Under the pieces are notes generated by a model that worked only from the letters and a program-made list of their open reading frames with translations, was not told the DNA's origin and did not search any database. A program made the position numbers and the translations under genes. Source: Gemmatimonadota bacterium (GTDB lineage Bacteria > Gemmatimonadota > Gemmatimonadetes > Gemmatimonadales > GWC2-71-9). From it: a stretch of DNA of 40,090 nucleotides. Shown here piece by piece: positions 12,053-20,369 of this stretch (its first letter is position 1; each line of letters starts with the position of its first letter). The DNA lies in contig JAGGAG010000003.1 of assembly GCA_017889745.1 (NCBI GenBank), positions 1 to 40,090 of the forward strand, given 5' to 3'.

Positions 12053-13045
12053 ATGTACCGGACACACTGGATCGCACTCGCCCTTGGCGCCGCCGGCGCC
12101 ATGCCGCTTGTCGCGCAGGACGCCCAGCCGCAGCCCAGGTCGCAGGTGCGCATCGAGCGCCATGGCAGCCCGGGGTGGAATGGCCCGGGCGACATGGAGA
12201 TCATGATGACCCGGCGTGCCCGGCTCGGCATCAAGGTCAACCTGCAGGCGCGCGCCAGCGATTCCATCGGGGCCTACGTGGAGGCGGTCACCCCCGGCGG
12301 ACCGGCGGCCAAGGCCGGTCTCGAGGCGGGTGACGTGATCACGAAGCTCGACGGCACCTCACTGGTTGGCGGGAGCAAGCAGGGGAGTGCAGACCGGTCG
12401 CTGCCGGGCATGCGCTTGATCGAGTTGGCGGCGCGCCTGCCCGCCAACGACACCATCCCGATCGACTACCGCCGCGGCAAGGACCGCAAGAGCACGACGC
12501 TCGTGACGCAGGAAGACCCCGAGAAGGTCTTCGTGATGACGCCTGATGGTGACCGGGAGTTCTCCTTCCGCTTCGACGGCGACGGCCCGGAAGGCTTCGA
12601 GGGACAGGCAATGCCCGGCATGGGCATGCGGGTGCCGATGGCCCCCGGCATGAAGATGCGGACGCCCATGGGTGGTGGGGACATGCCGTTCAGGGTGTTC
12701 ATCTCGTCGGAACTGGAGGAGCTCGAACTGGTGCCGCTCAATCCCGACCTGGCGCCCTATTTCGGCGCCAGCGACGGTGTGCTGGTGATCAACGTGCCGC
12801 AGGGATCGACGCTGGGGCTCAAGGGCGGCGACGTGGTGCTGACCATCGACGGCCGGAAGCCGGCCAACACGGCGCAGATGCACCGCATACTCCGGTCCTA
12901 CGATCCGGGGAACACCGTGAAGTTCGAGATCCTGCGCAACAAGAAGACGATCACGGTGTCGGGCACGATCCCGAATCCGCCCGACATGAAGTGGAAGACG
13001 GGTGACAGTGTGAAGGTGAGAACAAAGGGCGCGACGGGTACGTGA
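12053..13045 (+). CDS. Secreted protein with two PDZ domains
   Basis: SD AAGGAG and a signal peptide. PDZ1: ARLGIKV...VTPGGPAAKAGLEAGDVITKLDG. PDZ2: GVLVINVP...LGLKGGDVVLTIDG. Confidence 0.85.
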   Translation: MYRTHWIALALGAAGAMPLVAQDAQPQPRSQVRIERHGSPGWNGPGDMEIMMTRRARLGIKVNLQARASDSIGAYVEAVTPGGPAAKAGLEAGDVITKLDGTSLVGGSKQGSADRSLPGMRLIELAARLPANDTIPIDYRRGKDRKSTTLVTQEDPEKVFVMTPDGDREFSFRFDGDGPEGFEGQAMPGMGMRVPMAPGMKMRTPMGGGDMPFRVFISSELEELELVPLNPDLAPYFGASDGVLVINVPQGSTLGLKGGDVVLTIDGRKPANTAQMHRILRSYDPGNTVKFEILRNKKTITVSGTIPNPPDMKWKTGDSVKVRTKGATGT

Positions 13046-13087
13046 TCGACCGCCGCCTCACTCCTCACACAGTCGTTCTTCCTCGAG

Positions 13088-14806
13088 TCAGGCGGTTAAC
13101 GGCCGCACCTTCCGGCGCTCCAGATCGGGATGGACGCGCCGGGCCAGGTCGATGAACATCGGGATGTCGAGGCTCTGCGGGCCGTCACTCATTGCCTGCT
13201 TCGGGTTGGGATGTACCTCCACTATGAGTCCCGCTGCTCCCGCCGCGAGCGAGGCCTCGGCGAGCGGCGTCACCAGGCTGGCCACGCCCGCCGCATGACT
13301 CGGGTCCACCACCACCGGCAGGTGTGACCGCTCGCGAACCAGCACCACCGCGTTGAGGTCGAGCGTGTGACGGGTGGCGCGCTCGAAGGTGCGGATGCCC
13401 CGCTCGCACAGCACCACGTTGGGGTTGCCCTCCGCCAGCACGTACTCCGCCGCCATCAGCCATTCCTCGATTGTGGCCCCTGCGCCGCGCTTGAGCAGCA
13501 CTGGCACGCCGCTCCTGGCCGCGGCCCGGAGGAGGGAGAAGTTCTGCATGTTCCTGGCACCGATCTGCAGCATGTCGGCGAAGTGCGCGACCAGCGGCAC
13601 CTCCTCCCAGCTCAGCACCTCCGTGACGATCGGCAGGCCGGTGCGCTCGCGCGCCTCGGCGAGATACCGCAGTCCCTTCACCCCCAGCCCCTGGAAGTCA
13701 TAGGGCGAGGTGCGCGGCTTGAATGCGCCGCCCCGCAGCATGTCGCCGCCCGCGCTTGCCACCGCGTCCGCTGTCTCCAGGATCATCTCGCGGCTCTCGA
13801 CCGAGCACGGTCCGGCGATCAGCACCGGGCTGGCGCCACCGAACTCCAGGTGGCGCACCTTGACGATCGAGCCCTGCGGGGCGCGCCGCCGGTCGATGAG
13901 CGGGATGTCCGGCTTCTTCACGTGGTGCGCGGGCGTCGGATGGAAGATCTGGAAGCTGGGTACGCCCTCCGTCCAGGCCTCGTAGCTGCCCAGAATGATC
14001 AGTTGCGCCGCCAGTGCCTCGACTTCCTCCAGCGCCTCGGCGACGCGCGGCTCCGTGGCCGCACCTTCCACGTCGACGTAGAACCGGTAGGTCCACGGCG
14101 CCGACGGCTCGGGCCGCGACTGCAGTGCCGTGAGGTTGACGCCCCGCGCGCTGAAGGCGAGCAGCGTGTGCGCCAGCATCCCGGGGCGGTGATCGAGCGA
14201 CACGATGAGCGAGGTCTTGAACGGGCCCGAGCCGGCGGGAGCCGCTGGCGCGCCCTGGCGGCTGAAGATCAGGAAGCGGGTCTGGTTGGTGGGATCATCC
14301 TCGATCCGTTCCGCCAGAGGCACCAGGCCATGCGCCGCGGCAGCCGGCAGTGCCGCGATCGCGGCCTCGGTCGGGTCGCCATGTGCCGCCACCATCTCGG
14401 CGCTTCCAGCGGTATCCCACGCGCTGACCAGCTCGGCATTGGGCAGGTGCTTCGAGAGCCAGCGCCGGCACTGACCCAGCGCCACCGGGTGCGAGTACAC
14501 CCGCCTGATATCCTCCACCCGTGCGCCCGGCACCGCCATGATCGTGTGGTGAACGGGCAGCAGCGTCTCGTGCGTCAGGGCCAGCGTACCGTCGCCGAAC
14601 GCCTCGTGCAGCAGGTCGTAGGTGGCGGTGACCGAGCCGATCAGGGAGTTCTCGATCGGGAGGCAGCCAGCATCGGCCCGTCCCTCACGGACCGCCGCCA
14701 CCGCGTCCGCCACCTCGCGGCAGGGGATGGCTTCGAGCTCGGGCCACCGGCGTCGTGCCGCCGCTTCACTGAAGGCGCCGTGGGTGCCCTGGATGGCTAC
14801 GCGCAT
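13088..14806 (-). CDS. pheA-aroF: Fusion: prephenate dehydratase-ACT (PheA) plus type I-beta DAHP synthase
   Basis: N-half: VAIQGTHGAFSE, PIENS, SHPVALGQC, NQTRF, and ACT with HRPGML...LQSRP. C-half: IAGPCSVES, GGAFKPRTSPYDFQG, IGARNMQN, LCERGIR, DPSH, SDGPQSL. Confidence 0.93.
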   Translation of the reverse strand: MRVAIQGTHGAFSEAAARRRWPELEAIPCREVADAVAAVREGRADAGCLPIENSLIGSVTATYDLLHEAFGDGTLALTHETLLPVHHTIMAVPGARVEDIRRVYSHPVALGQCRRWLSKHLPNAELVSAWDTAGSAEMVAAHGDPTEAAIAALPAAAAHGLVPLAERIEDDPTNQTRFLIFSRQGAPAAPAGSGPFKTSLIVSLDHRPGMLAHTLLAFSARGVNLTALQSRPEPSAPWTYRFYVDVEGAATEPRVAEALEEVEALAAQLIILGSYEAWTEGVPSFQIFHPTPAHHVKKPDIPLIDRRRAPQGSIVKVRHLEFGGASPVLIAGPCSVESREMILETADAVASAGGDMLRGGAFKPRTSPYDFQGLGVKGLRYLAEARERTGLPIVTEVLSWEEVPLVAHFADMLQIGARNMQNFSLLRAAARSGVPVLLKRGAGATIEEWLMAAEYVLAEGNPNVVLCERGIRTFERATRHTLDLNAVVLVRERSHLPVVVDPSHAAGVASLVTPLAEASLAAGAAGLIVEVHPNPKQAMSDGPQSLDIPMFIDLARRVHPDLERRKVRPLTA

Positions 14807-14845
14807 TGGGTCATGCTCCTGTGGTGTGCCGCTCGTGTCATGCCG

Positions 14846-14884
14846 AAAAAGGAAACGCCCCGCCGGCTGCTGCCGGCGGGGCGT
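14846..14884 (-). terminator. Attenuator terminator hairpin upstream of pheA-aroF
   Basis: Minus strand reads ACGCCCCGCCGGC-AGCA-GCCGGCGGGGCGT-TTCCTTTTT: a perfect 13-bp stem followed by a U-rich tail. Confidence 0.88.
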
Positions 14885-14905
14885 CGAGGGTCCGTTCAGG
14901 TCGCG

Positions 14906-14986
14906 CTACTGCACGCTACCGGAACCGGACGCAGCTCGAGCCGCGCCGGCGCTGGTAAAAAAGAAGTACCACGACCGTGTATTCAT
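14906..14986 (-). CDS. Aromatic amino-acid attenuation leader peptide MNTRSWYFFFTSAGAARAASGSGSVQ
   Basis: ATG AAT ACA CGG TCG TGG TAC TTC TTT TTT ACC...CAG TAG: five consecutive aromatic codons, ending 21 nt before the terminator and directly upstream of the aromatic-pathway gene. Confidence 0.85.
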   Translation of the reverse strand: MNTRSWYFFFTSAGAARAASGSGSVQ

Positions 14987-14993
14987 GCAGGGG

Positions 14994-15022
14994 AGTCTCG
15001 TTCCGGGGCCGCCGGGTGTCAA
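14994..15022 (-). promoter_or_regulatory. Putative sigma70 promoter producing a leaderless leader-peptide transcript
   Basis: TTGACA (15022-15017), a 17-nt spacer, then GAGACT (14999-14994). The ATG follows 7 nt later and there is no SD. Confidence 0.55.
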
Positions 15023-15079
15023 GTGCAGGACGCCTGGCGGTCGACCGAGCCGGCCCACTGGCGGAGGAACCACATCGCC

Positions 15080-15328
15080 TCACGACAGTTGGATCTGCCC
15101 TCCGGCGAAGAGGAACTGCTCCATGCTCTTGAGAAGCATTTCCTTGGCCTTGGGATCCCGCACGTTGAGGCCGTAGTGATTGATCATCTGCTGCTGGGCC
15201 TTGATCCACTCCGCCCAGCAGGTGGCACAGATTTCCTGATAAAGCCGCCGTCCCAGTTCATTCTGGAAGGGCTGGAAGCTCATCTGGTCGCGGGTCTGGC
15301 CGCACCGGGTGCAGTTGATGTGAGGCAT
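15080..15328 (-). CDS. yggX: Fe(II)-trafficking / oxidative damage protection protein YggX family
   Basis: MPHINCTRCG...PFQNELGRRLYQEIC..CWAEWIKAQQQMINHYGLN...MEQFLF matches the family pattern. Confidence 0.88.
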   Translation of the reverse strand: MPHINCTRCGQTRDQMSFQPFQNELGRRLYQEICATCWAEWIKAQQQMINHYGLNVRDPKAKEMLLKSMEQFLFAGGQIQLS

Positions 15329-15387
15329 GACGAAAAAGTAGCGTGCTCGTGCACTGGTGGCGAGGCGCCGCCGCTCCCATCGCATGA

Positions 15388-15690
15388 TCATGGGTAGAGC
15401 CTCCCTCGCGCTGACTCGGTACGCCCGAGCGCCCGCACGCCCGCGGCCGTACCCATCCCCGTGCCGACGCCGAAGACGATCGCGGTGCCAAGGGACACGA
15501 GCGGAAGGGCCGAAAGCGGCCACGCCAGCAGGAACGCCGCCGCGCCGGCCACCAGCGGGGCAAAGGGCGACCGCATCGCGTCCACGAAACGGAGCCGCCG
15601 CTGCACGAAGTTGCGTGCAAAGAAATAGCTGCCGATCGCCGATGCGGCGAAGATGAGCAGGGATGTGAGCGCCATGAGTTTGCCTACCAT
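15388..15690 (-). CDS. Small hypothetical membrane protein
   Basis: 100 aa with about three hydrophobic segments; GAGG upstream of the ATG. Confidence 0.7.
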   Translation of the reverse strand: MVGKLMALTSLLIFAASAIGSYFFARNFVQRRLRFVDAMRSPFAPLVAGAAAFLLAWPLSALPLVSLGTAIVFGVGTGMGTAAGVRALGRTESARGRLYP

Positions 15691-15826
15691 TGAGAAACCT
15701 CAGTTGAGCCTGAATCGTACCGAACGCGTTTCAGTACGGAACAACCGTCCGGCGAGTTTCATGCGTATCGCTTTGGCGGCAACCCGGCCAGTATTCCGCA
15801 CCAGCCACGTCCGGAGACGCACGGCA

Positions 15827-16246
15827 ATGAGCAGCAAGCATCCGGTGGTCAGCATCCCCGACGTGGGCAGTATGGACCACGCGTGGGATGTCCTCGGTCC
15901 CTGGGAGGTCGATTTCGAGCTCCTGGAGCAGAATGACCGCGTACCCGGCGAACTGGCCTTCAACTCGTGGGACGAGGCGGAGTTGCGCCTGGACGAGGCC
16001 CGGGCGTCGGTGATGGGCGTGCCGGCGGTGGTGCGCCTCGAGCGCGACAGCGAGATCGAGCGAACGGATGCGGGCGGGGGGGCGCTGGAGTGGATGATGG
16101 GCGCGTCGGGCGCCCCGTGGTCCTTGCGCTGCGTCATGTGGCCCGGTGACCTCTACCTTCGCGTCGAGCACGCGGAGCATGACGAGGAACTCTTCCGGTT
16201 GCGGGCGCGCCGCACCCGCGAGTACTACGCCGCCAAGTATCCCTGA
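15827..16246 (+). CDS. Hypothetical protein
   Basis: GGAG upstream of ATG 15827; 139 aa, acidic and beta-rich, with GC3-biased codons. Confidence 0.7.
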   Translation: MSSKHPVVSIPDVGSMDHAWDVLGPWEVDFELLEQNDRVPGELAFNSWDEAELRLDEARASVMGVPAVVRLERDSEIERTDAGGGALEWMMGASGAPWSLRCVMWPGDLYLRVEHAEHDEELFRLRARRTREYYAAKYP

Positions 16247-16253
16247 GGTTCCG

Positions 16254-17249
16254 CTACCAGCGGAGCGCCACGCTTCCCCACATGAAGCCGGATCCGAACG
16301 CGGTGCCGACAACGAGGTCGCCGGCCTTGAGCCGGCCCGCGCGCGCGCACTCGTCGAGCGCGATCGGGATCGTCGCCGCGGTCGTGTTGCCGTAGGACAT
16401 GATGTTGTTGTAGACCTGGTCGTCACGCAGGCCGAGGGTCTTCTGGACCATCTCGGAGATGCGCAGGTTGGCCTGGTGCGGCACCAGGAGCGTGACGCCC
16501 TCCAGTGACTCCCCCACGCCGGTGAGCACGGCGCGCACCGACTCGGGCATGCGCACCACCGCGTGGCGGAACACCTCCTTGCCGTCCATGTGGAGCCAGT
16601 GGCGTCCCTGGGCCATCAGTACCGGGCTGATCCTCGGGTGATACATCGAGCCGGGGGCGTCGACCCAGAGCTTGTCGGCGAAAGCGCCGTCCGAGTGCAG
16701 GTCGAACCCCAGGATACCGCGGTCCTCGCCAGCGGACGGCCCGAGCACGACGGCGCCGGCCCCATCGGCGAAGATCACCGCCGTGGCACGGCCGGCCGTC
16801 GAGGCGTCCAGGCCGGTCGACTGCACCTCCTGGCCCACCACCAGCACATGCCGGAACAGGCCCCCCCTGATGTAGGCATCCGCTGTCGCGAGCGCATAGA
16901 TGAACCCGCTGCATTGGGCGCGCACGTCGAGGGCGGGAATCGGCCCCAGGCCGAGCCGGTGCTGCAGCAGCACGCCATTACCGGGAGCGAAGTGGTCCGG
17001 CGTCGACGTCGCCAGGACGATGGCATCGATGTCTCCATCGGCGAGGCCTGAGGCCGCGATGGCGCGCCGGCTGGCGCGCTCCGCCAGGTCAACGCCGGTC
17101 TCGCCCTCGCGCACCCAGTGCCGCTGGCGGATACCGGTGCGTTGCGTTATCCACTCGTCGGTGGTGTCCATGACGGCGGCCAGCTCGTCATTGGTGACGA
17201 TGCGATCGGGGACGGCCATGCCGGTGCCGAGGATGACGCTTCGTGTCAT
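16254..17249 (-). CDS. fabH: 3-oxoacyl-ACP synthase III
   Basis: WITQRTGI, catalytic AQCSGF, FADGAGA, PHQAN, YGNTTAA, AFGSGF. Confidence 0.93.
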   Translation of the reverse strand: MTRSVILGTGMAVPDRIVTNDELAAVMDTTDEWITQRTGIRQRHWVREGETGVDLAERASRRAIAASGLADGDIDAIVLATSTPDHFAPGNGVLLQHRLGLGPIPALDVRAQCSGFIYALATADAYIRGGLFRHVLVVGQEVQSTGLDASTAGRATAVIFADGAGAVVLGPSAGEDRGILGFDLHSDGAFADKLWVDAPGSMYHPRISPVLMAQGRHWLHMDGKEVFRHAVVRMPESVRAVLTGVGESLEGVTLLVPHQANLRISEMVQKTLGLRDDQVYNNIMSYGNTTAATIPIALDECARAGRLKAGDLVVGTAFGSGFMWGSVALRW

Positions 17250-17613: not shown

Positions 17614-18825
17614 CTACTCGTAGCGCAGGGCCGTGATCGGGTCGAGCGACGCCGCCTTCCGCGCGGGCCAGATCCCGAAGAAGAGCCCGACTCCGGCGCT
17701 GAAGGCGAACGCCACGGCAATGGATGCGGGCGAGATCAGCGTGTTCCAGTGCATGAGCTTCGAGAGGGCGATGGCGGCACTGACGCCCAGGATGATGCCG
17801 ATGGTGCCGCCGCTGATGCACAGCACGAGCGCCTCGATGAGGAACTGGAGCAGGATGTTGAGCTTGGTGGCGCCGAGCGCCTTGCGCACGCCGATCTCCC
17901 GGGTGCGCTCGGTGACCGACACGAGCATGATGTTCATGATGCCGATGCCGCCCACGATGAGGCTCACGGCCGCGATCGAAGCCAGCAGGGCGGTGAACAC
18001 CTGCGTCGCGGCCTGCTGTGTCGCCAGGAACTCGCGCTGGTTCCGCACCATGAAGTCATTTTCCGCGCCGGGACGGATCTTGTGCTCCCGACGCAGCACC
18101 CGTTCCATGTCCACCATGCCCTGCTCCAGCGGCACGTTCTTGTCCACCTCGACGGTGATCGTCCGCAGCCGGTCGCTGCCGAAGACCCGGAAGCGCGCCG
18201 TCTGCAGCGGGATGAGGACCTGCTCGTCGGGGTTCTGGAAACCCTGCGAGCCCTTTTCGCTGAGCACGCCGATGATCTCGAACGGGATGCCGCGCACCAG
18301 CAGCGTCTGGCCGATCATCGCGGCGGGATTGGCCCCCAGCATCTCCGGGACCTGGGAGCCGAGCACGGCGTAGCGCTCCCGGCTCTCGTCGTCTCCCTGC
18401 GTGAACATCCGGCCGTACGGCACCGCGTAGTTGCGCACGGCGGCGTAATTGGCGGTCGAGCCCACCACGTTGACGTTGATGTTCTGGTTGCCGTACTTCA
18501 CCTGAAGCGACCGGGAGATCTCCGGCACCACGTTGGTGATCAGCTTCGCGTCGCGCTTGAGCGCTTCGGCGTCGTCCACCGTCAGGCTCACCCGCTGGTC
18601 GCTCGCCACGCCCCGCACGTTCATCTGCCCGGCGTACACGTTGAGCAGGTTCGCGCCGAGCGAATTGATGCGCTCCTCCACCGCCTTCTGCGCGCCGCTG
18701 CCCAGCGCCACCATGGTGATGACCGCGCCGACGCCGATCACGATGCCGAGCATCGTGAGCGCCGCCCGGAGCTTGTTGGCCCGGATGGACTGGAACGCGA
18801 CCGCAACCGTTTCGCCGAGCTGCAT
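17614..18825 (-). CDS. MacB-like ABC transporter permease
   Basis: LRAALTMLGIVIGV, GGIGIMNIMLVSVTERTREIGVRKALGA, PARKAASLDPITALRYE. Confidence 0.95.
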   Translation of the reverse strand: MQLGETVAVAFQSIRANKLRAALTMLGIVIGVGAVITMVALGSGAQKAVEERINSLGANLLNVYAGQMNVRGVASDQRVSLTVDDAEALKRDAKLITNVVPEISRSLQVKYGNQNINVNVVGSTANYAAVRNYAVPYGRMFTQGDDESRERYAVLGSQVPEMLGANPAAMIGQTLLVRGIPFEIIGVLSEKGSQGFQNPDEQVLIPLQTARFRVFGSDRLRTITVEVDKNVPLEQGMVDMERVLRREHKIRPGAENDFMVRNQREFLATQQAATQVFTALLASIAAVSLIVGGIGIMNIMLVSVTERTREIGVRKALGATKLNILLQFLIEALVLCISGGTIGIILGVSAAIALSKLMHWNTLISPASIAVAFAFSAGVGLFFGIWPARKAASLDPITALRYE

Positions 18826-18827
18826 GG

Positions 18828-20369
18828 CTACCGTCCTGCCGGCGCCGACGGCCGCGCGGTGGTGCCACTCGCCGACGGCGTGGTGGATTGCCGCATGCCC
18901 GGCATGCCGCCGCCCGTCATGGTCTGGATCCGGTTCTTGAACTCCTGCTGCGAGTTGATGAGGCTCGCGCTCGGCAGCACGAGCACCGAGTCACCGGCCG
19001 TGAGCCCCGAGATCACTTCGCTGTAGTCGAGATCGGTGAGCCCCGTGCGCACGTTCGCCGCCTTAGGGCCTTCCGACGTGGCCAGGAACACCACGTAGTT
19101 GCCGCCGAACTGGTAGTCGCTGCCCTGCGGCCGGGGGCGCCCACCGCCGGCCCCGCCGCCGTTGAGCGCCCGCATCTTCTGGAGCAGCGCGCGCTCCTCC
19201 GGCGTGGGCTGCTCGCCGTTCCTGAACTTGGCGAAGATGGCGCGCATCTGCGCCTCGGTGACGCCCTCCGGGAGCTTCACCACCCGGCCATCGGGCGTGG
19301 TCATCGTATTGCCCGCCGTCTTGCCGGCTGCCGCCGCGGGCGGCGCACCGCTCCCGGCACCCATCGAGACCTGGCGTGACGCCGCCGTGTCGCCCTGCGG
19401 CGGCGCCGGCTGGGCCCCGGCCAGCTGCGCGTTCACCTGCTCCATGGTGAGGCCCAGCACGCCGGCCGCCGATGCGACGTCCTTCTGGGTGCGCAGGGCG
19501 GAGTTCGGCACCGCGAGCACGCTGTCGCGCCGGCCCACATGGATCTCCACCTCGGAGTTCATGCCGGGGCGCAGCAGCCCCTCGCGGTTGTCGATGCGCA
19601 CGAGGACCGGGAACATGGTCACGTTCTGCTGCACCTCGGCCAGCGGCTCGATCTTGAGCACTTCGCCCTGGAACGGCCGGTTCGGATAGGCATCCACCGT
19701 CACCGTCGTAGCCTGCCCCGCCTTGACCTTGCCGATGTCCGTCTCGTCCACCAGCGTGCGCACCTGCACGAGGTTGAGGTCGGCCATCTTCATCAATACG
19801 GTGCCGCCGCCGGCGTTGAACGTGGCCGAGGCCACCACCTGCCCGCGCTCAACGCCCTTCTGGATGATGACGCCGGTGATCGGCGCCCGCACGTCGGTGT
19901 CCTCCAGCGCGATCTGGTTGTTCTCCACGTCAATCCGCGCCCGCACCACGGCGGCGCTGGCACTGGCGTAGTTGAGCTGGGCCGTCTCGTACTCCTGCTG
20001 CGTGATCGTCTGCGCATCGCGCAGCGTCTTCGACCGGTCCAGCTGGGTCCGGGCGTTGTCCAGCTGAGCCTGCGCCAGCGTGAGCTGGGCCTTGGACTGG
20101 TCGACCGCATTCTTCGCCTGGCGAGGATCGATGCGAATGATGAGCGTACCCCGCTTCACCAGCTGGCCCGTCTCGGCCAGGATCTGCAGCACCTCACCCG
20201 AGGCGCGGGTCTTCACCTCGACCGTCGTGTCCGGCTGGATCGCGCCCGAGGCCTGCGCCGAGACGACGATGTCGCGCTTCTCCACCGCCAGCGCCTGGTA
20301 AACCGGCTTCGGCACCGGCTTGGAACAGGCGGCTGCCAGGAGCACGACGGACAGGAAACGGATACGCAT
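18828..20369 (-). CDS. MacA-like periplasmic adaptor (membrane fusion) lipoprotein
   Basis: Lipobox LAAAC, ASGAIQP...VKTRASG, coiled-coil hairpin, RAPITG, VDETDIG, LRPGMN. Confidence 0.92.
   Translation of the reverse strand: MRIRFLSVVLLAAACSKPVPKPVYQALAVEKRDIVVSAQASGAIQPDTTVEVKTRASGEVLQILAETGQLVKRGTLIIRIDPRQAKNAVDQSKAQLTLAQAQLDNARTQLDRSKTLRDAQTITQQEYETAQLNYASASAAVVRARIDVENNQIALEDTDVRAPITGVIIQKGVERGQVVASATFNAGGGTVLMKMADLNLVQVRTLVDETDIGKVKAGQATTVTVDAYPNRPFQGEVLKIEPLAEVQQNVTMFPVLVRIDNREGLLRPGMNSEVEIHVGRRDSVLAVPNSALRTQKDVASAAGVLGLTMEQVNAQLAGAQPAPPQGDTAASRQVSMGAGSGAPPAAAAGKTAGNTMTTPDGRVVKLPEGVTEAQMRAIFAKFRNGEQPTPEERALLQKMRALNGGGAGGGRPRPQGSDYQFGGNYVVFLATSEGPKAANVRTGLTDLDYSEVISGLTAGDSVLVLPSASLINSQQEFKNRIQTMTGGGMPGMRQSTTPSASGTTARPSAPAGR

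Follow-up and report, generated by a model that had tools for sequence, protein, structure and literature searches.

How is a gene controlled that encodes both the shared first enzyme of aromatic amino acid synthesis and the Phe-specific step, and which amino acids does that control sense? We asked this of a fused gene in a stretch of 40,090 nt from contig JAGGAG010000003.1 of assembly GCA_017889745.1 (the window, i.e. the whole stretch of DNA that was analysed), which comes from an uncultured Gemmatimonadales bacterium. The fused gene joins prephenate dehydratase to DAHP (3-deoxy-D-arabino-heptulosonate 7-phosphate) synthase. A sequence-only reading of the segment just 5' of it had proposed a leader-peptide attenuator on a leaderless transcript, in which a short open reading frame (ORF) with consecutive Trp, Tyr, and Phe codons would sense all three aromatic amino acids. 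We find that the segment is very probably a classical ribosome-mediated transcription attenuator on a leaderless mRNA, controlling a monocistronic pheA-aroF-like fusion, for which Phe appears to be the main signal. The layout observed in the window is real, with the promoter, the ATG, the ORF, and the antiterminator strands lying on the minus strand exactly where that reading had placed them; its terminator stem, put at 13 bp, is in fact one pair longer (Table 1).

The leader layout is found repeatedly among relatives, whose records are metagenome-assembled genomes (MAGs) named Gemmatimonadales. Among 41 related genomes, 16 loci carry a full-length fused orthologue, and the layout lies 5' of all 15 that have upstream DNA (L011 is cut). 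A wider scan of genome contigs adds 24 orthologues in which the prephenate dehydratase (PDT) part comes first (L031-L053 and L089), including one, L052, from a genome labelled Acidobacteriota, and the layout precedes 24/24. All 39 loci share TTGAC[AG], a start codon about 30 nt further on, an ORF of 23-29 codons, and a terminator of the pattern GCCCCGCCGG…CCGGCGGGGC followed by a T-tract, and the aromatic run mostly finishes in F-T (TTT ACC). A covariance model built from this 39-locus leader set, R1, detects a single true copy, the present locus, in the genome of the window (2.79 Mb in 251 contigs, 77% complete). When 151 evenly sampled genomes of the order are searched with R1, strong matches (E at or below 6.6e-10) occur in 20 of them, which all belong to one family; this count includes the window's genome and G098 (locus L120). 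Without L120, the locus of the window itself (L111), and two loci from genomes already counted (L130, L134), 16 matches remain, and all of them sit 14-62 nt before residue 1 of a fused orthologue. The pooled set comprises 55 loci with 52 distinct leader ORFs and shows the layout at 55 of 55; comparison of orthologous upstream regions, which had been suggested as a check, finds the conserved aromatic-codon ORF at every one of them.

Table 1. Features of the leader and of the fused gene in the window (position 1 is its first nucleotide)
Feature	Position	Strand	Basis or remark
-35 hexamer TTGACA	15017..15022	-	Direct reading; TTGAC[AG] in 55/55 orthologous loci
Weak -10 hexamer GAGACT (nAnnnT type)	14994..14999	-	17-nt spacer after the -35 hexamer; 7 nt to the ATG
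Leader ORF, 26 codons plus TAG, without Shine-Dalgarno sequence	14906..14986	-	ATG at 14986, TAG at 14908-14906; encodes MNTRSWYFFFTSAGAARAASGSGSVQ
Regulatory codons 6-10, TGG TAC TTC TTT TTT (W-Y-F-F-F)	14957..14971	-	Direct reading
1:2 hairpin (anti-antiterminator, possibly a pause hairpin)	14896..14979	-	5' arm contains the regulatory codons and segment A
Segment A, antiterminator 5' strand, GCCGGCGCGGCTCGAG	14935..14950	-	Leader ORF codons 13-18
Segment 3, antiterminator 3' strand, CTCGACGCCCCGCCGGC	14872..14888	-	Also the terminator 5' arm plus a 3-nt extension
Intrinsic terminator hairpin, 14 bp (12 G-C), loop of 4	14854..14885	-	Terminator prediction
Terminator T-tract TCCTTTTT	14846..14853	-	Direct reading
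Shine-Dalgarno sequence AGGAG of the fused gene, 9 nt 5' of its ATG	14816..14820	-	GGAG at least 90% conserved, alignment A1
Regulated fused gene, prephenate dehydratase-ACT-DAHP synthase (type I beta), 572 aa	13088..14806	-	Pfam

Folding of the leader recovers both alternative structures, the terminator and the antiterminator. The complete 187-nt leader folds at -87.2 kcal/mol (z -3.74) into the long 1:2 hairpin plus the terminator, and the 1:2 fold by itself (14896-14979) reaches -43.6 kcal/mol (z -4.14). When the sequence is cut before segment 4, the partner of segment 3 in the terminator (3:4) hairpin, the minimum free energy (MFE) structure instead pairs 14950-14935 with 14888-14872, extended by an inner hairpin; this antiterminator fold (14872-14950) has -48.3 kcal/mol (z -4.16). 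In each of the three cases 0/200 shuffles were as stable. The two segments that the sequence-only reading had picked out as nearly complementary are those that pair here, and across 39 leaders 89.5% of the cells of their helix are paired, with four pairs changed on both sides. Specifically, columns 69/131 read AU in 26 leaders and GC in 6, while columns 70/130 read GC in 15, UA in 10, and CG in 2. The antiterminator shares a strand with the terminator, so that the two are mutually exclusive, but its compensatory columns lie outside the terminator; i.e. extension columns 130-133 covary with ORF columns 66-70. The apex helix of the 1:2 hairpin is paired in 82.1% of cells and has six pairs changed on both sides, the terminator in 94.8%, and slid controls in 36-47%. 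Covarying stems, another of the suggested checks, are present in both the antiterminator and the apex helix, and the three parts expected of a leader-peptide attenuator (ORF, terminator, and antiterminator) are all conserved in the orthologous leaders.

The spacing of these parts is also kept. Measured from its first nucleotide, the last aromatic codon precedes segment A by 10 nt in 37 of the 39 leaders, and the leader stop codon ends 16-24 nt before segment 3, again in 37/39 (17 nt in the window, where CTCGAC stands at that distance past the stop codon and the terminator hairpin begins at its fourth base, 14885). We then folded each leader up to segment 3 under a ribosome mask covering -18 to +11 nt around the A site. 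In this masked-fold model, the probability that segment 3 pairs upstream has a median of 0.80 with the ribosome over the aromatic run and of 0.42 with the ribosome at codons +2 to +8 after it. The value is higher over the run than after it in 39/39 leaders, and by at least 0.2 in 38 of them (the exception is L043). With the A site on codons 6-10, the antiterminator stays available in the masked folds.

Under the model that we favor, a ribosome would load on the 5' end of the mRNA without a Shine-Dalgarno sequence. When Phe-tRNA is plentiful, it would pass over segment A to the TAG and segment A would be barred from pairing, a ribosome parked at the stop codon keeping segment A apart from segment 3; the 3:4 hairpin would then form and RNA polymerase would halt at the T-tract. 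When Phe-tRNA is scarce, the ribosome would stall at codons 6-10 with its front edge just short of segment A, the lower 1:2 stem would be melted, segments A and 3 would pair (-48 kcal/mol), and the polymerase would read into the gene. If the leader is not translated at all, the 1:2 hairpin would presumably form first and then the terminator, as in the trp model.

The leaderless start is supported by the spacing of the promoter. The distance from the end of the -35 hexamer to the ATG is 30 nt in 42 of the 55 loci and 29-31 nt in 49, the others having 32-33 nt (five loci) or 36 nt (one), which implies a leader of 2-6 nt. In 48/55 loci the ATG follows the end of an nAnnnT hexamer by 6 or 7 nt, and a word resembling a Shine-Dalgarno sequence is found within 16 nt upstream of the leader ATG in only 3/55, in keeping with the proposed absence of such a site, while the fused gene itself has a conserved one. 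From this spacing, the transcript is expected to start at the A of the leader ATG or at a neighboring nucleotide, giving a leaderless mRNA.

Several observations weigh against this interpretation. A consensus promoter scan of 13000-17000 called no promoter at all, and the -10 hexamer GAGACT is weak, with 3 of its 6 positions agreeing with TATAAT; the case for the promoter therefore comes from its conservation, and the TTGACA-N17-GAGACT arrangement of the earlier description reads as stated. As for the switch, when segment 4 is present the terminator is in the MFE structure at every ribosome position, and when segment 4 is absent the antiterminator is the MFE structure even without a ribosome. 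The switch must therefore be kinetic. The lower helices of the 1:2 hairpin, which hold the aromatic codons, are kept poorly (37-74% paired in the 39 leaders), and the core of the terminator is nearly invariant and offers little covariation. The tested structures were taken from the window's own fold and are favored over the slid controls for that reason, and the kinship of the sequences means that counts across them overstate independent support. GCCCCGCCGG terminators resembling this one also follow unrelated genes in the order. Finally, the start site, the termination point, and translation of the leader are all predictions from sequence, and none of the listed sequencing runs that contain the stretch is recorded as RNA.

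The resemblance among terminators is widespread. Throughout the order, terminators of the form (A)CGCCCCGCCGG-loop-CCGGCGGGGCG-TTTT follow tRNA genes and coding genes that are unrelated (L136-L145 and further weak matches to R1), which looks like a lineage-typical sequence and suggests that the near-invariant stem is not peculiar to the leader element. Nine of the weaker R1 matches in the sample of the order (E 1e-6 to 1e-2; L136-L144) were rejected as attenuators, being generic GC-rich terminators after tRNAs or coding genes, and the other R1 matches in the window's genome (E 0.03 or weaker) proved to be coding sequence or plain terminators.

Given a probable attenuator, we wondered which amino acids it senses. 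One leader can serve several amino acids of a shared pathway, as in the multivalent attenuators of ilvGMEDA (Leu/Val/Ile) and thr (Thr/Ile); those leaders, however, have several codons of each kind, whereas the window's leader has three Phe codons, a single Tyr codon, and a single Trp codon. At least two Phe codons are found in 51 of the 52 distinct leaders, and the other, that of L052, has none and reads Y-W-Y. We compared the runs on a tree of the fused proteins (FastTree, 54 rows, L089 omitted as too short, midpoint root for drawing only). Across the 39 rows of the window's clade, F is present in 39, Y in 37, and W in 32. By contrast, the 15 rows of its sister clade have essentially Phe-only runs (F 14, Y 2, W 1). 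Presence of F changes once on the tree, that of Y four times, and that of W seven times. The Tyr codon shifts position between subclades even though it is nearly always present in the window's clade, which hints at selection for having one. At the Trp position, TGG alternates with CGG/CGA, and the partner of the codon's first base is a G (U-G 17, C-G 9); the RNA pairing, and not tryptophan, may be what is conserved there.

We rate Phe sensing as the function of the leader and Phe as its conserved and, as far as the codon runs indicate, primary signal, with Tyr sensing plausible and Trp sensing doubtful. The near-universal Phe codons bear out that part of the earlier claim that one leader reports Trp, Tyr, and Phe, but its Tyr and Trp parts are not established. 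A selected three-way sensor, in which the charging of Trp, Tyr, and Phe tRNAs each controls read-through (multivalent attenuation), is mechanistically possible and unproven. In the masked folds all five aromatic codons leave the antiterminator available upon a stall, so that Tyr and Trp codons, lying in the same stall-competent zone, would give read-through if those tRNAs ran short. Such a sensor would also fit the prevalence of Tyr and Trp in the window's clade and the make-up of the runs as a whole, where the commonest non-Phe residues are Y (44) and W (31), the next being G (14), as well as the mixing of W, Y, and F in leaders of unfused DAHP synthase genes of other families (e.g. L025). 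Moreover, the ACT domain could restrain the PDT half when Phe is plentiful, and extra enzyme would then mainly raise flux through the common pathway. Yet the Phe-only sister clade, the frequent changes of W and Y, and the exchange of the Trp codon for CGG/CGA all speak against it, as do the single Trp and Tyr codons of the window and, according to a review's account (PMC11802643), the aroR leader of Corynebacterium glutamicum, where transcription rises when Phe is limiting but does not respond to the availability of Tyr. We consider a selected three-way sensor quite improbable; taken singly, selection for read-through on Tyr is moderately supported and on Trp weakly supported.

A scenario limited to the window's clade is that its leader, on a leaderless mRNA, was retuned from Phe-only to a bivalent or trivalent aromatic sensor (Phe and Tyr, perhaps Trp), which we regard as tentative and rather unlikely. 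If true, the charging of several aromatic tRNAs would be signalled by a single stalled ribosome to an enzyme that catalyses both the entry to the common pathway and the step of the Phe branch. The Phe-only form would then persist in the sister clade, and, together with the leaders of unfused DAHP synthase genes, these loci would provide a natural series in which codon make-up evolves alongside pathway wiring. Phe-only and mixed aromatic leaders on the same gene already offer a natural comparison for the evolution of attenuator specificity. The L052 leader (1050-1127) has the same architecture before a 67%-identical fused gene and carries the run Y-W-Y-S-P-L; it sits on a long branch of the fused-protein tree, and could be either a retuned or a decaying attenuator.

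Whether the ORF is translated at all bears on the whole model. An untranslated ORF within a ligand- or protein-controlled terminator switch, with aromatic codons as a by-product of the RNA sequence, would fit the observation that much of the ORF past codon 10 is nucleotide-conserved and lies in helices. The reading pattern of the ORF argues otherwise, and makes such a switch very improbable. The ATG is invariant at the predicted 5' end, and the aromatic bias is specific to the frame, with 17.1% aromatic residues in frame 0 of the 52 distinct leaders compared with 2.5% and 6.7% in the other frames (F+Y+W make up 6.8% of the proteome). The order of the aromatic residues differs between relatives (WYFFF, WFYFF, YWFFF, WFFYF, FGFFF…), i.e. 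codons are reshuffled or synonymously exchanged, while the frame, the position, and the 10-nt spacing are kept. The aromatic run falls within the least structured part, and the first 7 nt of the leader ORF are unpaired in the MFE fold. A cmscan of 13000-17000 with E up to 10 gave no match to an Rfam leader family; the five weak matches that it returned belong to other families and stay below the gathering threshold, and the strongest of them (ctRNA_pGA1, 28.6 bits versus a threshold of 45) is the terminator hairpin.

Phe codon choice in the leaders is unusual as well. TTT accounts for 8.4% of Phe codons in 944 long ORFs of high GC3 in the window's genome and for 62 of the 169 Phe codons in the 52 leaders (2 of 3 in the window's leader), so the suspicion that TTT is atypical for this genome holds. 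The last Phe codon is nearly always TTT, and two of its bases are paired in the apex helix. The TTT preference could reflect structure, slow decoding, or both.

Least probable of all is that no attenuation occurs, with the ORF encoding a small protein that has its own function or the hairpin simply ending the upstream gene. Within the genus the peptide's C-terminal half (…AGAARAASGSGSV) is indeed well conserved, but its conserved codons coincide with the paired segments and vary where pairing is compensated. The hairpin does stand about 195 nt past the Iron_traffic gene, but the upstream gene varies by locus while the promoter, ORF, and terminator stay with the fused gene, and the promoter lies between the upstream gene and the hairpin.

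The regulated gene is the fusion that the sequence-only reading had described, all three of its domains being matched by Pfam: PDT (1.2e-55, residues 3-184), ACT (8.3e-9, residues 198-263), and DAHP_synth_1 (6.6e-78, residues 323-554). It is monocistronic, the next gene downstream being convergent. The gene 5' of the leader (15523-15080, same strand) is of the Iron_traffic/YggX type. The opposite strand has a 676-codon open frame (13367-15397, +) that overlaps both the leader and the fused gene in antisense; given the strong Pfam support for the minus-strand gene, this frame is most likely an artefact of the high G+C content (70%). The PDT-first fusion is confined, in this sampling, to part of one Gemmatimonadales family, and the order is reversed in some Spirochaetia MAGs (L096, L101, L106), with DAHP synthase as the first part of the fusion. 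Five fusions of other phyla that match the PDT N-terminus (L070, L096, L101, L106, L110) have no leader; this check covered those five loci, with the near full-length L093 outside it.

Leader-peptide attenuation is an established mode of control, described for Escherichia coli pheA and pheST and for C. glutamicum trp and aroF (PMC11802643, PMC4046766). The E. coli leaders pheL-pheA and pheM-pheST are like the present one in their Phe-rich leader peptide, the 1:2, 2:3, and 3:4 pairings, the intrinsic terminator, and the control of prephenate dehydratase (mechanism as outlined in PMC11802643, the remainder being well established). They differ in that no sequence or covariance-model similarity is detected (no Rfam leader match at E up to 10), and in that the window's ORF is without a Shine-Dalgarno sequence, begins where the transcript is predicted to start, encodes a longer peptide (26 aa), and includes Trp and Tyr codons; in addition, its prephenate dehydratase is fused to DAHP synthase and not to chorismate mutase. 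The closest counterpart that has been studied is the aroR leader before aroF of C. glutamicum, the transcript of which we take to be leaderless. It shares a mixed Phe/Tyr leader, a DAHP synthase gene, a GC-rich host, and ribosome stalling, as these are summarized in PMC4046766 and PMC11802643. However, aroR belongs to another phylum and has only Phe-Tyr-Phe, and the likeness is one of description.

In Streptomyces lividans, eight genes have a leaderless leader peptide with hairpins behind it (PMC8079986). Such peptides are also described for C. glutamicum ilvBNC (PMC11857589) and for mycobacterial polycysteine short ORFs (bioRxiv 10.1101/834739), and those of S. lividans and C. glutamicum that come with terminators are a precedent for the present one (PMC8079986, PMC4046766, PMC11857589). 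As these sources present them, the leaders of Actinobacteria (S. lividans leuL, trpL, ilvL) resemble ours in having an ORF at the 5' end of the transcript, hairpins, often with a U-tract, and downstream amino-acid genes (PMC8079986, PMC11857589). None of those listed there is a Phe leader, and in the window leaderlessness is deduced from promoter geometry. Our results suggest that Gemmatimonadota, too, use leaderless leader-peptide attenuation, which had so far been described in Actinobacteria. A search of full-text literature, with subscription journals mostly outside its coverage, returned no paper describing an attenuator in Gemmatimonadota, and within the same coverage none of the papers returned for leaderless genes in Gemmatimonadetes was about attenuators.

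What is new here is the phylum and the unusual fused gene; the type of attenuation is already known, and the understanding of its mechanism is unchanged. The leader adds a well-supported, unannotated cis-regulatory RNA family to the Gemmatimonadota, an abundant, barely cultured phylum of soil and wetland in which gene regulation has hardly been studied. The 26-codon ORF escapes gene callers, and R1 offers a way to annotate the leader.

The attenuator is not a feature of the whole order because none is found in G052, G094, and G107, single-contig genomes of a related genus. None of the six DAHP synthase loci of these genomes (L146-L151) has an aromatic short ORF that passed the filter, and none appears in any of the six frames of the G052 region between both protein matches (including the N-terminal part of the DAHP synthase). 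In these three genomes the DAHP synthase and prephenate dehydratase genes are divergent neighbors, and with no aromatic short ORF found in them there is no obvious cultured host for the element. The second DAHP synthase of the window's genome (G000 contig C51, about 19165-20160, +) has no leader ORF either; it shares 56% identity with the fused enzyme, carries a ferredoxin-like extension of regulatory type at its N-terminus, and starts a few bases past the stop codon of a large SMC-like gene.

In other Gemmatimonadales lineages, unfused DAHP synthase genes can have short ORFs and a terminator of their own (L018 nt 1321, L022 nt 1111, and L025 nt 1153), these being the 3 of 14 loci that passed a strict filter. 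Their peptides begin MQIARAAAFFFYFSYRTPG…, MTPRQTFVAFHFFFPF…, and MTRNWFSTTYYFGAFGYNRW…, respectively, and the ORFs lie 6-9 nt after a TAnnnT hexamer. A scan of the window's genome for leaderless short ORFs with terminators, and for other aromatic or Trp-rich leaders, found only the present locus convincing for aromatics. Two further short ORFs were seen in this genome. On contig C65 of G000, a leaderless-type ORF (ATG at 170, -; MQRICMCPQMCIGHS…) has a TTGACA-N18-TAGGCT promoter and a terminator, and the downstream gene lies beyond the end of the contig; the ORF has a Cys/Met-rich run similar in composition to the S. lividans metL leader as given in PMC8079986. On contig C219, a short ORF (ATG at 17994, +; MLIDRLQAATAIIVNSPRSLGAVG) is accompanied by a promoter-like site and a terminator; the gene downstream of it has an N-terminus that, judged by eye, is like that of the glutamate synthase large subunit.

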